Shown: piece after piece, positions 30,955 to 44,603 of the stretch
Position numbering within the stretch: the stretch's first letter is position 1
Layout: the number at the start of each line of letters is the position of its first letter
From: Botryllus schlosseri
Taxonomy: Eukaryota
Assembly (NCBI GenBank): GCA_051294905.1
Contig: CM119371.1
Coordinates: 19,470,001-19,534,000 of the forward strand
DNA: 64,000 bases
Direction of reading: 5' to 3'
Translations under genes and position numbers: made by a program
Notes under the pieces: generated by a model
Database searches by the model: none
What the model saw: the letters and a program-made list of their open reading frames with translations, nothing else
What the model was told of the DNA's origin: nothing

Positions 30955-33900
30955 ACTATATATTTGGATTCGAGGCTTCAACGGTGCTGGTCGTAACGTA
31001 AAGGCAGACCGGCGCGCATGAAATGCGCCATCAGACGAAAGTTTCGATATCGCAGAAAGGCAAGTTCTAGCTCCGAAAGAATCTGAATTAATCGCCATGA
31101 GTACTGTGGGAAACTTTTGAATTCCGAACCAAGTGTAATCCTAATCAGCGAAGACCCACAATCCCAAGGGCTAATTCGCACCAATACAGAATTTCGGGAT
31201 TTTTCAAGCTTTTTGAGATAAGTTTCGTCCATCCCAACCTGTATCAAACCAGACGTTGCGGGCTAAACGAAACCTGTACGGAAATACGTCTCACAGTGGC
31301 AGGATACGCAAACTGTGTGCACACTGCACAGCCTAAATCCGTTGAACATTTTCTGCTAATATACCACAGACTCTCGAAGGTAATATATAATTAAAACTGC
31401 TGAAAAAAAAACTGTAGAATACGAGCACAAAAATCCCGCATACCAACCAACCAACCAACCAACTACTTTTCTCAGATTCTAATAATCATCGATCCTTTTC
31501 ATGTTGTTAATCGCACGCATATCCAGGGCCGTAACCGCACTCTGTCAGATCCCCCCAAAACATTGGTCGTGGGCCCCCCATAGGGTGATAAAACTTACCC
31601 ACAACACGCTATGCGCTGTTTGCCGATACTTATCATTGTTGTGCGTCCGTTTTGTGAGCCACCTTTTCTCGCGTACACGCGCGAAGCGCGAGTAATTTCT
31701 AGACTTCGTGACTGAATCGGTTAATATGATCGTGAATTGCATATATATTGCTATCAATTTTTCTCCTCTCTCTGCTCACGTAATCTGATTTACCGGTAGC
31801 GCTGAGTGAGGTGTGTTTGAAAAGGTAGGATCCCTCAATATTAATTAAACATATTCGGGTGAATACCTGTTGGCATGAGCAAACGGCACTTCGTCAGGCC
31901 CCCAAATAAAAATATAAAATAAAATAAAACTTGAGTTTTGGGCTGGAATTGGGTGTTAAACCGACCCCCAATCACGTTTTTCGCCTTTGCCACGAAATTA
32001 TAGACGTACAGTTCAGTGAGCTAGCGTGAAGCGCGAAAGTTTTCGATAATTCATGATAAAGTCGTTCAATGTGATCGGGAACTGCATATATATTTCTATC
32101 AATTTCTTGTCCTCTCTGCTCACGTAATCAGATTTACCGGTAGAGCGGAGTGAGGTGAGTTTGTAACTGTAGAGCCCGTAAATAATAATTAAACATCTTC
32201 GGACGGGCCACCCCGCTATGGTATGACCTCGTTACATGATGTTATTTCGTGACCTCCTGTATGCTATATCAAAAAATATAGAATCGGTATTTCTTCACCT
32301 GCATATAATTTTTCACTGCGGGATGGTATTTGTCTTGTGAGGTTTAGATTGCCAAGACAGGAGCATTGGGCGCCAGTCATTTAGGCGCCTTTGGACAATA
32401 AAACCTAGTTGTATTTTATACAGATAACGCAGTTTTCGGTCACCATAAGGCAGTCCTATTCGTCCAAGGTTTTCTCGCTGCCGATAGAGTAGTTTTGTAT
32501 TGAGTTTGCCTCACTTTCATGATTTTATGAAAGAGAAGTATAGGCTACATATGCCAATATCCTGTATTTAAATAATAGGACTCGACAGAAGATATGAACA
32601 CTTTACTGACGTCACGTTCGGCGGGAAACTATTCTCTAACCCAGTGGTTCTAAACCGGTGTGCCATTTACGTCTCGCTAGTGTGCCGCGAGCGATTTCTT
32701 CGGAATTTTGAAATTATGCGCAAAATAATTCTATTTTATAGCAAACGATCAATAATATAAATCGAGATTTATGTGAAGTTTGTATATTTGACAAATCAAA
32801 ATTGATATTACGCCGGCAATCAATATCCCCGTCGAATTTGCCTTACCGGGCAGATCGCGTGCTGAATTAAGTTTTGAAAAATACGTTGATTGATCGCACA
32901 CAGAGCAGAGAAGGCATCGCGACGCATGTGTGACAATGCAGTTTTCTAATCCTCACTGTCTCCCCAATCACAAGCGAGAAATGAACTCATTTGGAATGGA
33001 CGTTCAAGTAGTAAGGGTATCGACTTTATACGCAGACCAATCACAGAAGGCCACGACGCCTTAATTGCCACGCCTACATTGCCACATCATCCGCCCATTG
33101 CCGCACCTATAGGACACCCATTGCCACGTCACTTGCCGCACCTATAGCACACCCATTGCCACGTCTATAGTGCCACATCATCCATTGCCACATCATCACC
33201 GCATTGATTGCCGCATCCGCGCGATGTCGATTGCTGCACCTATGTCACTCATTGCCACGTCAAAACTTACCTTAGCTAGAATCGAACCTGGTTTGGTTGG
33301 GTATAATTTCACATCGCCCACCACCAGTCTATTGAGCAAACTAGCCGTATTGAGCTGTTTTGAGAATATAACCGCCGATTCTCTCTTAAATTCCGAGACA
33401 AAACCTTTTTCGAGTAATAACACATAAATGTAAGACTATGTTCGTGTGTACTATAACACTTGTGTCATCATTAATTAGTCAATGATTTTGAGGAATTCTG
33501 CGAATGCAACTTGATAATGCAGATATCGCCACCATAAATGTCTACAATGACGCGAAAGCTCACGCGCATATTGCTGAATACTATTCCAAGAAATTGACGC
33601 GTGTAAATGTGCCACGAATACAGTTGCTTACGATTCCAAAAAGTTGCGCCACATCGACAAAGTGAATTAGAACATTCTAAATAAAGTTGCGTTTCCAAGA
33701 AAATGCCGCGTTGGCGTTACGAATTAGAATGTTTAGTTCCGACGTAAAGCAATTCGCATTCTGAAAACGTCGCATTTCTATTACAAGTATGTGCGCAGCG
33801 AGGCAGCCATCGCAGACATAAGGTAAGATCAATGTATTTTCGTGCCAATTTAAACTAAATGTAGCTATAATTTCTCGATGCAGCATTAGCTTACGCGGAT

Positions 33901-42800: not shown

Positions 42801-44603
42801 TATTTTCAGTTATCAGGCATAGTTTTCTATTTACTTTACAAAACTCATACGATTTTTTTTTGTTGCGTTCCGCGATAAAATGTAATATTTCGCGCTTTTT
42901 AATTTTTTAATTTTATTTATTATTTTCAGTTATCTGGCAAACTATACCTTTAATACGTACTTTTTCACTTGTTGGAGATCTGCACTTCCTGTACTTTAGT
43001 AGAAATTTAGTGATAATAAAATGTTGGAATGTACTTTTTTCATTGCTCTGGATAAGAGGTGTCAGTTTCATAAACTTATCCGACAGCATCAGATATTGGC
43101 GATGGAGAAAGCTAGGCACTATCTAGTATTATTAGCTATTTAAATGATGCGATATAGGGGAAATCTCGGTGTAATTCAATCTGCGCGCATTATCCATGTA
43201 TGCTCCAATGCGTTTGCGGCTTTAGTATAGGTATATGATCTAATATATTCTATAAAACATCTACGTTGCTATATATTATATATCTTAATCCGAAGTGCAT
43301 TGCTGCATTGAAAAATTATAGCTATATGCGGTACGCTGTCGATTTTTCAGTATAGTCAAGAAATGAAATAGCCCACCTTCAGTGTTGCGTAATCTGCTTT
43401 GTCACTATATGCTTGTTCCGGGCTTGCTTGCGGTGCTAGTCTTCTTGGCTGCGTGAAATAGGATGTTTCAGCTTAAAACTCAACGCATTAGCATGCCTAA
43501 TTTATAACCACAGCGAGATTCGAGTAATAACCGAGCCTAGATAGTCTACCTTTAACAGAAAACTTGCATATACATTCGAATTTGTGCGACTTCGGCTATA
43601 TTGCCGGTTAACATTATAGCCACGCACAGAACTCATTATTACGTTAGCTATTGGAGAAATCTCAACGTAAATCAATCTGCGTTCACAATCCGCGTAAGCT
43701 AATGCTGCATCGAGAAATTATAGCTACATTTAGTTTAAATTGGCACGAAAATACATTGATCTTACCTTATGTCTGCGATGGCTGCCTCGCTGCGCACATA
43801 CTTGTAATAGAAATGCGACGTTTTCAGAATGCGAATTGCTTTACGTCGGAACTAAACATTCTAATTCGTAACGCCAACGCGGCATTTTCTTGGAAACGCA
43901 ACTTTATTTAGAATGTTCTAATTCACTTTGTCGATGTGGCGCAACTTTTTGGAATCGTAAGCAACTGTATTCGTGGCACATTTACACGCGTCAATTTCTT
44001 GGAATAGTATTCAGCAATATGCGCGTGAGCTTTCGCGTCATTGTAGACATTTATGGTGGCGATATCTGCATTATCAAGTTGCATTCGCAGAATTCCTCAA
44101 AATCATTGACTAATTAATGATGACACAAGTGTTATAGTACACACGAACATAGTCTTACATTTATGTGTTATTACTCGAAAAAGGTTTTGTCTCGGAATTT
44201 AAGAGAGAATCGGCGGTTATATTCTCAAAACAGCTCAATACGGCTAGTTTGCTCAATAGACTGGTGGTGGGCGATGTGAAATTATACCCAACCAAACCAG
44301 GTTCGATTCTAGCTAAGGTAAGTTTTGACGTGGCAATGAGTGACATAGGTGCAGCAATCGACATCGCGCGGGTTGATGCTGTGCAGCCTATAGATGCGGC
44401 AATCAATGCGGTGATGATGTGGCAATGGATGATGTGGCACTATAGACGTGGCAATGGGTGTGCTATAGGTGCGGCAAGTGACGTGGCAATGGGTGTCCTA
44501 TAGGTGCGGCAATGGGCGGATGATGTGGCAATGTAGGCGTGGCAATTAAGGCGTCGTGGCCTTCTGTGATTGGTCTGCGTATAAAGTCGATACCCTTACT
44601 ACT
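39604..44603 (-). repeat. Right arm of giant inverted repeat
   Basis: Mirror of 33007-37984; carries an extra 22 nt at 44371-44392. Confidence 0.97.
40301..40383 (-). tRNA. tRNA-Leu (TAA)-like gene, mirror copy in right arm
   Basis: Reverse complement of 37205-37287. Confidence 0.75.

Follow-up and report, generated by a model that had tools for sequence, protein, structure and literature searches.

The replication and movement of Maverick/Polinton elements (adintoviruses) in animals are still inferred from gene content. As described in PMC8502044 and PMC11071296, an adintovirus-type Maverick/Polinton encodes an rve integrase with a C-terminal chromodomain, a hexon-like double-jelly-roll capsid protein, an adenain-like protease and a packaging ATPase between inverted terminal repeats. 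Homologs of Bcl-2 and IAP have already been published from adintoviruses (Starrett et al. 2021, PMC8502044). In the butterfly polintons of bioRxiv 10.1101/2025.02.07.637071, gene-containing terminal inverted repeats of about 2 kb are reported on otherwise coding elements. Copies of Drosophila FB and of Galileo (the latter in PMC3573991) are non-autonomous, consist nearly entirely of inverted repeat with internal tandem repeats, and are moved in trans. For pPolB-less endogenous virophages and polinton-like viruses, which have rve integrases and palindromes able to fold into priming hairpins, hairpin-primed replication was proposed (bioRxiv 10.64898/2026.07.28.741278). In origin-dependent inverted-repeat amplification, which proceeds via hairpin-capped DNA, template switching starts at a short inverted repeat with an interruption, and the resulting palindrome keeps the repeat and its spacer on the axis (PMC10766183, PMC4689423).

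Here we describe a palindromic element in the window (the whole 64-kb stretch of DNA that was analysed). With good confidence, we assign it, as a non-autonomous foldback element, to a Maverick/Polinton family of adintovirus type. In snap-back and copy-back defective viral genomes, incomplete adenovirus genomes and hairpin derivatives of protein-primed linear plasmids, one functional terminus becomes two by inverted duplication; such molecules are transient extrachromosomal by-products, whereas the lineage of the window element is germline-integrated, multi-copy and diversified.

Compared with the adintoviruses described in PMC8502044 and PMC11071296, the window element lacks the core genes, and its coding partners were found without the group-defining PolB. 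Unlike the repeats of the butterfly polintons described in 10.1101/2025.02.07.637071, the inverted repeat here accounts for 86-100% of the element, has a conserved hairpin at its centre and is not accompanied by core genes. FB and Galileo belong to other superfamilies (Galileo is P-like), have other duplication lengths and carry no virus-derived cellular gene like Bcl-2. The pPolB-less elements are from a protist and their palindromes are terminal and 52 nt long in the account of 10.64898/2026.07.28.741278, whereas here the whole element is palindromic and the hairpin is central. The axis layout of origin-dependent amplification is the same as that of the 19-bp stem and 41-44-nt loop found here and may be relevant to it, but the process described in PMC10766183 and PMC4689423 is a rearrangement of yeast host chromosomes with no transposable lineage. 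Among open-licence papers and bioRxiv, no paper on a palindromic or foldback Polinton derivative was found, nor was a hairpin-centred palindromic satellite lineage; anti-apoptotic cargo as such is not new.

Structure and insertion site of the palindrome

The element begins with AGTAGTAAGGG and ends with CCCTTACTACT, giving AGTAGT...ACTACT termini, and is flanked by a perfect 6-bp target-site duplication, CGTTCA (Table 1). The inverted arms are 100% identical except for one 21-nt indel: 33217-37984 is 100% complementary to 39604-44371 over 4,768 nt, and 33007-33217 to 44393-44603 over 211 nt, the two blocks being interrupted solely by the 21 extra nucleotides of the right arm. The arms make up 86% of the element, and 1,619 nt (37985-39603) lie between them. 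The subterminal motif ATTGCCRC occurs 22 times in the 64-kb window against 4.27 expected, a count that none of 100 shuffles reached, and 16 of the 22 matches are in the two arrays, which are candidate binding sites for integration or replication machinery. No Rfam match was obtained at the gathering threshold over 30000-48000. An earlier sequence-only reading had described the 11.6-kb unit with its termini, the duplication, the subterminal repeats and the nearly identical arms of about 5 kb, and all of these were recovered by recomputation.

Table 1. Positions of the element, its parts and its insertion target in the window.
Feature	Position	Strand	Remarks
Host interspersed repeat, the insertion target	32658..33006, resuming 44604 to ~44703	.	
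Left target-site duplication, CGTTCA	33001..33006	.	Single copy at the paralogous empty site
Whole element, 11,597 bp	33007..44603	.	Absent from the 99%-identical paralog
Left arm, by exact-repeat extension	33007..37984	+	Homology to ~38004 across a 12-nt in-frame insertion at 37985
Subterminal array, 8 ATTGCCRC	33064..33258	+	Mirror with 8 copies at 44330-44546
tRNA-Leu(UAA)-like sequence	37205..37288, mirror 40300-40383	+, mirror -	~450 bp upstream of each Bcl-2 start
Truncated left Bcl-2 exon 1	37738..38004	+	Codons 1 to ~87 with a 4-codon insertion; abuts the central hairpin directly
Central hairpin module	38005..38085	.	18-19-bp stem containing TTCCCGCGCGC, 43-nt loop; former symmetry axis ~38045
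Inner part of right half, mirror deleted from left half	38086..39603	-	Bcl-2 3' flank, exon 2, intron, 3' part of exon 1
Bcl-2 exon 2	39066..39179	-	37 codons and stop; continuation past BH2, hydrophobic C-terminal anchor
Bcl-2 predicted intron, 197 nt, GTGGGT...TTGCAG	39180..39376	-	Directly after BH2 GGW; splice predicted from sequence
Bcl-2 exon 1	39377..39850	-	158 codons; BH3-like LRRVGD, BH1 NWGR, BH2 GGW; Mcl-1-like
Right arm with 21-nt insertion 44372-44392 missing from left arm	39604..44603	-	
Right target-site duplication, CGTTCA	44604..44609	.	

A paralogous site with 99% identity, 153-164 kb away (C1:19667243-19667442), has a single CGTTCA and no element, indicating that the element was inserted as one unit. 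At 39 or more further places, the 200 bp around this empty site had matches of 83-93% identity that ran unbroken through the insertion point (40 of 1,085 candidates were scored; at least 34 matches ran from query position 17 or lower to 176 or higher). The element therefore lies within a copy of an abundant interspersed repeat. The sequence-only reading had placed the insertion in a putative hAT MITE, of which the interspersed repeat is borne out, and had proposed a search of other haplotypes for an element-free site with a single CGTTCA.

Long perfect palindromes are a known artefact of long-read libraries, and an assembly error or chimeric reads could produce a palindrome that is absent from the animal's DNA. 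When reads and contigs were mapped on 37600-40000, only short contigs were obtained, with no piece across the whole stretch and, among the records listed, none bridging the novel junction at ~38004/38005. This explanation is, however, extremely improbable, because each end passes into a unique flank, the 6-bp duplication is perfect and there is a precise empty site. The element is also asymmetric by a private 1.5-kb deletion and the 21-nt indel, and its architecture recurs, with other duplications, at 10 or more loci elsewhere. In a run of a different study, contigs covered 27 of the 30 bins of the centre, and one contig from a different study bridges 39570-39643, the uninterrupted Bcl-2 side. 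We concluded that the element is a real, recently inserted, near-perfect DNA palindrome.

Coding relatives and family assignment

The terminal 294 bp had 52 matches in the genome, many of which formed inverted pairs 10-27 kb apart. Fifteen elements were compared, 11 palindromic and four coding (14-15 kb). The AGTAGT terminus was found in all but one of them (C12_25.40), and both ends were identified in 11 of the 15. Each of these 11 had a perfect 6-bp duplication of a different sequence, as had been expected for other copies of a mobile element, and a nested twelfth element had the duplication TTCGCT.

The four coding copies encode an integrase, a Pox_A32 ATPase, Bcl-2 and a BIR/IAP protein. 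The integrase, a 339-aa ORF, contains rve (PF00665, E = 2e-14) and Chromo (E = 3e-8) domains and is absent from the window element itself; the ATPase matched Pox_A32 (PF04665, E = 8e-9) above the cut-off. A 425-aa protein was modelled with a pLDDT of 92.5 and a pTM of 0.90, and its top Foldseek matches were capsid proteins of Sputnik, PBCV-1, an iridovirus and mavirus (E = 2e-16 to 1e-13), so that the modelled fold is that of a double-jelly-roll major capsid protein. A word-based search with it gave two matches and an exhaustive search gave 4,723 representatives at E <= 0.001; of 67 aligned homologs, five match PF21738. Its profile found nothing among solved structures by sequence, and the single protein found no relative in IMG/VR viral contigs. 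A candidate C5-like protease had no Pfam match at E <= 0.01 and resembled the S273R protease of ASFV weakly (E = 0.1), while Peptidase_C5 was present in 27-38% of the members of its nearest Atlas clusters.

A protein-primed polymerase was sought in all four coding copies, and no ORF of at least 200 aa was found beyond the genes listed; the possible place for such a gene holds only tandem repeats of 0.6-0.7 kb. A whole-genome scan with PF03175 gave no matches, with control genomes equally blank. The sequence-only reading had expected autonomous Polintons with pPolB, integrase and capsid genes to share these termini. The integrase and capsid genes were indeed present, but pPolB was found in none of the four copies.

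The ends of the window element are 90-92% identical to those of the coding copies over ~0.5-1.3 kb. Together with the AGTAGT ends and 6-bp duplications common to copies carrying the integrase, ATPase, capsid and candidate protease genes, this supports the proposed derivation from a Maverick/Polinton. An unrelated foldback family, Maverick-like at its tips only and moved by another transposase, would fit the absence of an integrase from the palindromic copies. We consider this very unlikely, because the identity to integrase-bearing copies extends well beyond the tips, the duplication is 6 bp in both, and the Bcl-2 gene shares its intron position and second exon with that of the coding copies, with 80-86% amino acid identity in exon 1.

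Because Bcl-2 was the sole gene family recognised among the ORFs of the window element, and none of the ten other coding-copy proteins matches it, its assignment as non-autonomous, which had also been made earlier, is supported by sequence comparison. Integration in trans as one unit had been proposed as well. Insertion as a unit is borne out by the empty site, and integrase genes of the same family that appear intact are numerous (119 matches scored, including 35 of full length that are 96-100% identical and have no stop); an rve-type integrase may thus have been supplied in trans, making the 6-bp staggered target cut of the family.

The central hairpin and the palindromic lineage

The axis module is an 81-nt hairpin with a stem of up to 19 bp and a loop of 41-44 nt across copies, and the predicted folding energy of the window element's copy as DNA is -19.75 kcal/mol (z = -7.16). 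There were 336 candidates for it genome-wide, and the 40 that were scored were 94-100% identical. It was present in all 11 palindromic elements and in none of the four coding copies. In three whole palindromes (15.2-16.4 kb), which are palindromic through the centre, the module lies exactly on the symmetry axis, and it also occurs at the midpoints of Bcl-2 pairs at C1:3.652 Mb, C12:1.7517 Mb, C5:16.7548 Mb and C4:4.0030 Mb.

In one sibling, L041, the sequence of window positions 38086-38440 is found on both sides of the module, so that this sibling is still symmetric there. The window's own deletion junction was found at one of 40 scored places, which was the window itself, so that no other locus shares the deletion. 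From this comparison, the window copy appears to have once been a symmetric palindrome of ~13.1 kb that lost ~1.5 kb beside the hairpin. It would have entered the locus in the symmetric form, after which the left half lost everything from codon 88 of Bcl-2 as far as the base of the hairpin, leaving one intact Bcl-2 gene. The 1.6-kb spacer of the sequence-only reading is thus replaced by the central hairpin and the surviving inner right half. The flip/flop orientation of the central loop was also considered and set aside as evidence: both orientations occur, yet nothing outside the loop defines an orientation in a symmetric palindrome, and one-sided deletions are independent.

Siblings at C1:3.65 Mb, C12:1.75 Mb, C14:23.38 Mb and C5:7.77 Mb have the same mirrored layout of tRNA-like sequence and Bcl-2 together with the axis module, at 95-99% identity. 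About 50 convergent +/- Bcl-2 pairs were present (~53 were counted among 150 scored exon-1 matches), and their spacings fall into several classes, each seen repeatedly around the genome; one class, with ~5.6 kb between the partners, has eight or more pairs. The shared layout and the recurring spacings indicate that the palindromes transpose as palindromes. It was conceivable that a non-autonomous element with short terminal inverted repeats was inserted and became palindromic in place, by inverted duplication or by gene conversion from arm to arm. The target duplication would be the same in either case, and conversion in place between palindrome arms is known from other genomes. The siblings and the recurring spacing classes, however, make such an origin highly improbable. 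The idea of an isolated derivative, formed when a single retained end was duplicated, has likewise given way to a lineage spreading as palindromes around a conserved central hairpin.

Within elements, the arms differed by 0-0.33% over the terminal 1.2 kb in all nine palindromic elements compared, whereas the nearest other element differed by 1.3-32%. The tRNA-like segment had equal bit scores on both arms in 12 of 17 sibling pairs that are 1-7% from the window, although equality of bit scores is an indirect measure. Arm divergence was rejected as an age clock: the arms of C11_11.47 were 96.2% identical over 5.6 kb against 0.08% divergence over the terminal 1.2 kb, and the low overall identity probably reflects internal tandem repeats.

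The heritable unit is probably one half of the palindrome, consisting of a terminus, the subterminal repeats, the tRNA-like piece and an inward two-exon Mcl-1-like Bcl-2 gene, and ending at the 81-nt hairpin; the integrated form would then be an inverted dimer of this half-unit with the hairpin on its axis. What is now the axis module might have begun as a short, interrupted inverted repeat at which a template switch or snap-back created the first palindrome. Identity between the arms might be renewed whenever an element is copied, one arm being rebuilt or corrected on the template of the other in a single strand that folds back or in an intermediate with a hairpin end; we give this a little under an even chance. 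Rebuilding one arm from the other in each generation would explain why the arms of an element diverge by 0-0.3% and lineages by 1-30%. Arm identity could also stem from gene conversion in place.

The genome is in this respect a natural experiment, with a large young family made up of integrase-bearing, polymerase-less coding copies and gene-poor palindromic satellites that probably number in the hundreds. Since one conserved hairpin and concerted evolution of the arms are found in a young family, a fold-back or hairpin intermediate is testable with existing long-read data. Most palindromic elements are 12-17 kb long, compared with 14-15 kb for the coding copies. As a tentative extension, which we consider possible but doubtful, the palindromes might form a satellite lineage that perpetuates itself alongside an adintovirus-like element of animals, copied by folding back on the central hairpin, kept near the size of the helper genome and carrying a functional Mcl-1-like survival gene, in two copies, as their only gene. 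If true, this would be a gene-bearing parasite, virophage-like or defective-interfering-like, fixed in an animal germline, and replication in this polymerase-less Maverick clade would be mediated by hairpins and not primed by protein.

The Bcl-2 gene and the tRNA-like sequence

The Bcl-2 ORF at 39326-39850(-) matched PF00452 (E = 4e-22; 79 bits against a cut-off of 31), and its best solved relatives were Mcl-1 (E = 7e-12), BCL2L10, Bcl-2 and A1. A word-based protein search with exon 1 gave 29 candidates, none at E <= 0.001. The exon contains BH1 (NWGR), BH2 (GGW) and a BH3-like helix, and exon 2 is kept in three palindromic and four coding relatives with 60-89% amino acid identity. With its predicted splice, the window gene is a complete two-exon Mcl-1-like gene. 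Its product would promote cell survival and would have come down from the virus-like parental element. The sequence-only reading had named Bcl-2 and tRNA cargo as the only recognisable content and had seen in the element a mobile vehicle for an anti-apoptotic gene. Bcl-2 stands as the only recognised gene family; it was not picked up by this derivative, as the parental element carries it together with IAP/BIR.

Exon 1 was intact in three of 11 palindromic elements (sampled by terminal similarity), fragmentary in two and absent from six, so that the palindromic lineage can do without the gene. In the genome, 139 of 150 scored exon-1 matches have no stop. The dN/dS ratio between lineages was 0.28-0.46, with 17 synonymous and 24 non-synonymous differences between the window and a coding copy, and 10 and 12, respectively, between the window and another palindromic copy; this signal could date from the gene's time in coding elements.

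These figures raise the possibility that the Bcl-2 copies, including that of the window, are mainly relevant to the host, the elements being a route to a large, partly domesticated family of survival genes. The open exon-1 matches, a dN/dS below 1 that holds also between two palindromic copies, and the completeness of the gene with its membrane anchor all fit this possibility. We nevertheless consider it unlikely, because many palindromic relatives lack the gene, many near-identical copies fit recent transposition equally as well as selection, and a raw RNA run on 37600-40000 gave 16 reads, every one of which lay only partly on the stretch. A mobile element has thus spread a complete Mcl-1-like survival gene with a predicted splice until well over a hundred copies with an open reading frame are present, which is relevant to the exchange of apoptosis regulators among viruses, transposons and the genomes of animals.

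The tRNA-like sequence was called as tRNA-Leu(UAA) by ARAGORN. It has several non-standard pairs and scored 23.2 bits with Rfam RF00005, below the gathering threshold of 29; the tRNA cargo suggested earlier is thus reduced to a sub-threshold tRNA-like sequence. The segment is kept as inverted pairs in sibling elements.

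Architecture of the element and its insertion site

Exact-repeat extension resolved the element into two pairs of fully complementary inverted blocks, interrupted solely in the right arm, which has 21 additional bases between them. The element starts with AGTAGTAAGGG and ends with CCCTTACTACT, with CGTTCA on either flank. Within the first 260 nt, the 8-nt motif ATTGCCRC was found eight times, with eight mirrored copies at the opposite end, so 16 of its 22 matches in the window sit in the element ends (4.27 expected for the whole window). The palindromic unit that a sequence-only reading had described, with near-identical inverted arms, AGTAGT...ACTACT ends, a 6-bp target site duplication and subterminal repeats, was thus confirmed.

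The cargo proposed in that reading, Bcl-2 and tRNA, stood only in its first part. The sole ORF in the element recognised by Pfam encodes a Bcl-2 domain protein. ARAGORN called tRNA-Leu(UAA) in both arms, but the call reached only 23.2 bits against an Rfam gathering score of 29 and contains several non-standard pairs, and for these reasons we term it tRNA-like. Each arm also holds diverged repeats with short related ORFs, and direct repeats of 263 nt spaced 2,042 bp were noted with them.

The genome searched comprised 495 Mb in 219 contigs, with the window lying within it. The left 400-bp flank of the element matched C1:19666943-19667342 and the right 400-bp flank matched C1:19667337-19667736, both at 99%, and the two matches share exactly six bases. 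The aligned paralogous site has a single CGTTCA and no element; therefore this segment, 153-164 kb downstream, is a precise empty site. The flank copy as a whole (C1:19666943-19667736 against window 32607-45003) lies on the same contig; it could be a segmental duplication or, alternatively, a haplotype left uncollapsed. When the 200 bp around the empty site were searched (40 places scored from 1,085 candidates), 39 further places aligned without a break over the point of insertion (83-93% identity), and in 34 of these the match started at or before query position 17 and extended to 176 or beyond. The element therefore inserted into one copy of a repeat that is abundant and interspersed in this genome. 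A foldback MITE was seen 109 bp to the right of the insertion; it is very abundant, as the flank query had 2,093 first-look candidates. At some distance from the element, ARAGORN called a tRNA-Met (CAT) gene.

Features of the element, its surroundings and its relatives (window positions unless another stretch is named)
Feature	Position	Strand	Description
Outer inverted blocks	33007-33217 / 44393-44603		211 nt, 100% complementary
Inner inverted blocks	33217-37984 / 39604-44371		4,768 nt, 100% complementary
Inter-arm stretch	37985-39603		1,619 nt
Axis module	38005-38085		
Bcl-2 domain ORF	39326-39850	-	Pfam E 4e-22
Bcl-2 exon 1	39850-39377	-	158 codons; ends at GGW of BH2, then GTGGGT
Bcl-2 intron (predicted)			197 nt; ends TTGCAG
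Bcl-2 exon 2	39179-39066	-	37 residues: usual post-BH2 continuation and hydrophobic anchor
Arm repeats	35243-35893, mirror 41695-42345		about 425 bp apart, ~80% identical; ORFs of 81-91 aa, no Pfam match
Foldback MITE	44713-45343		280-nt arms (95%) around 71 nt
tRNA-Met (CAT)	6164-6236		
Coding-copy loci	C9:10.2 Mb, C13:17.2 Mb, C1:8.32 Mb, C8:24.8 Mb		one of the four copies is L011/L018
Integrase	coding copies		339 aa; rve and C-terminal chromodomain
ATPase	coding copies		Pox_A32-type
Bcl-2 protein and BIR-domain protein	coding copies		
155-aa protein	coding copies		nearest Atlas clusters have Peptidase_C5 in 27-38% of members
425-aa protein	coding copies		4,723 homologous cluster representatives
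ORF of 245 aa	L018 2913-3650	-	no Pfam match
ORF of 299 aa	L018 3632-4531	-	no Pfam match

The axis module and the inter-arm stretch

The terminal 294 bp matched 52 places in the genome, many of them forming inverted pairs 10-27 kb apart. Fourteen such elements were fetched and fully read together with the window element (n=15); the genome-wide counts given here are mostly lower bounds. A perfect 6-bp duplication, each of a different sequence, flanked all 11 elements in which both AGTAGT ends were found; in the remaining four, one end was outside the fetched DNA or missed by the simple end search.

Eleven of the 15 elements were palindromic, with arms of at least 3.1 kb and up to about 10.7 kb, and one further copy was in register for 1.6 kb only. 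Three elements (15.2, 15.4 and 16.4 kb) were self-complementary right across the centre at 99.65-99.78%, and their exact axis is a 19-bp stem containing TTCCCGCGCGC with a loop of 41-44 nt. This hairpin, the axis module, was present in all 11 palindromic elements, once in each except for one that has it twice, and in none of the four coding copies. The palindromic elements are therefore a lineage rather than accidents, and the proposal of a derivative that kept and duplicated one end needs revision. Folded as single-stranded DNA, the module gave -19.75 kcal/mol (z = -7.16). Genome-wide, it had 336 first-look candidates, and the 40 that were scored were all 94-100% identical. The element with two modules is a 22.3-kb relative (C1:40579843-40603134, stretches L020-L022) whose ~10.7-kb arms contain internal repeats, possibly a palindrome of higher order or a rearranged one.

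The inter-arm stretch had been read as a plain 1.6-kb spacer. The Bcl-2 copy of the left arm, however, extends past 37984 through a 12-nt in-frame insertion to about codon 87 at ~38004, where the truncated gene directly adjoins the axis module. To the right of the module, about 1.5 kb has no mirror on the left and consists of the Bcl-2 3' flank, exon 2, the intron and the 3' part of exon 1. In the sibling at C12:1.7517 Mb, this inner sequence is found on both sides of the module, 99.2% and 97.8% identical to the window. In both this sibling and the copy at C1:3.65 Mb, 2.66 kb separates the Bcl-2 exon-1 copies, and the distance of 1,332 nt between the end of exon 1 and the axis in the window is exactly half of that. 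Moreover, of 40 scored places, the window alone has the junction of truncated Bcl-2 and module; the match is limited to the Bcl-2 part in the remaining 39. The mirrored inner sequence, the doubled spacing and the window-only junction together show that the window element was formerly symmetric, a palindrome of about 13.1 kb centred at ~38045, and that one of its halves lost about 1.5 kb adjoining the hairpin. The supposed spacer is thus the hairpin and the surviving inner right half. Long palindromes usually suffer one-sided deletions next to the centre, and the copy at C5:7.77 Mb showed an independent one-sided loss on the opposite side of its axis module.

Coding relatives and the Bcl-2 gene

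The other four of the 15 elements are coding copies, 14.1-14.9 kb in length, with one enlarged to 26.8 kb through an insertion nested in it. In these copies the terminal inverted repeats (TIRs) measure only about 0.2-0.5 kb, and eleven ORFs are common to all four with 95-100% amino acid identity. The AlphaFold model of the 425-aa protein (pLDDT 92.5) matched double-jelly-roll capsid proteins of Sputnik, PBCV-1, an iridovirus and mavirus (E 2e-16 to 1e-13). The genes are an adintovirus-type Maverick/Polinton set, including the chromodomain integrase and Bcl2/IAP accessory genes, both of which are mentioned for adintoviruses by Starrett et al. (PMC8502044, PMC11071296). Of the Polinton genes expected in copies sharing these termini, the integrase and, by its model, the capsid protein were found; a polymerase-sized ORF was absent from all four coding copies, although the polymerase is a defining gene of the type. 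The 3.7-4.2 kb from one TIR to the putative protease gene contain tandem repeats of 0.6-0.7 kb. A genome scan with PF03175 was blank, but control scans were equally blank and it was thus uninformative. The adjacent 245-aa and 299-aa ORFs of L018 encode distant paralogues (21% identity, E ~1e-9) and are candidate genes for a penton or minor capsid protein.

The integrase had 119 scored matches from 818 candidates, with at least 35 full-length and stop-free at 96-100% identity and further intact groups at 67-70% and 53-55%.

The best solved relatives of the Bcl-2 protein were Mcl-1, BCL2L10, Bcl-2 and A1, and its BH3-like LRRVGD aligned with that of Mcl-1. Seven relatives, three of them palindromic and four coding, conserve exon 2 with 60-89% amino acid identity, and the predicted spliced protein would have 195 residues. 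The intron is at a position typical of animal Bcl-2 genes, suggesting that it was from genomic DNA that the ancestor acquired the gene. For the 158 codons, pairwise dN/dS was 0.28-0.46 between lineages, two palindromic copies included; these two differed by 10 synonymous and 12 non-synonymous changes.

Of 150 exon-1 matches scored from 424 candidates, 139 were stop-free. In the table of scored matches we counted about 53 convergent +/- pairs 3-16 kb apart, with several spacings recurring at many loci, and the tRNA-like segment showed the same paired pattern. Among the 11 palindromic elements sampled by their termini, exon 1 was intact in only three, fragmentary in two and absent from six, which speaks against a strict need for Bcl-2.

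Arm identity and copying of the palindromes

Over the terminal 1.2 kb, the arms of one element were 0-0.33% apart in all nine palindromic elements with both ends, and the nearest other element was 1.3-32% distant. The bit scores of the tRNA-like segment were equal in both arms in 12 of 17 sibling pairs, which were 1-7% from the window. Because the axis module is common to all these palindromic elements, they presumably descend from one palindromic ancestor, so that identity between the arms must be renewed as the lineages diverge.

The simplest explanation of the first palindrome would be a template switch at a short interrupted inverted repeat, now the axis; the hairpin-capped inverted-amplification model likewise has such a switch (PMC10766183). 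The element would be mobilised in trans. Its copying may involve an intermediate, either a single strand folded back on itself or a half-molecule with a hairpin end, and one arm would there serve to template or correct the other. In-place gene conversion could alternatively keep the arms identical. We tentatively prefer renewal through the fold-back or hairpin-ended intermediate, to which we give slightly less than an even chance. For virophage-like elements that lack a polymerase and have palindromes at their termini, hairpin-primed replication has been proposed in a recent preprint (10.64898/2026.07.28.741278).

Adintoviruses with Bcl2 and IAP homologues (PMC8502044) and polintons with gene-bearing TIRs of ~2 kb (10.1101/2025.02.07.637071) have already been described. 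In open-licence papers and bioRxiv, we found no report of palindromic, foldback, snap-back or defective Polinton/Maverick derivatives. A second kind of palindrome was nested within one coding copy (C1:8321684-8349456, stretches L031-L033, joined coordinates 11229-24665). It is AGTAGT-ended and 13,437 bp long, with 6.1-kb arms (99.5%) that enclose a loop of roughly 1 kb, and its 6-bp duplication is TTCGCT. Its termini are unlike those of the window family and it has no axis module; therefore, at least two palindromic lineages are present in this genome.
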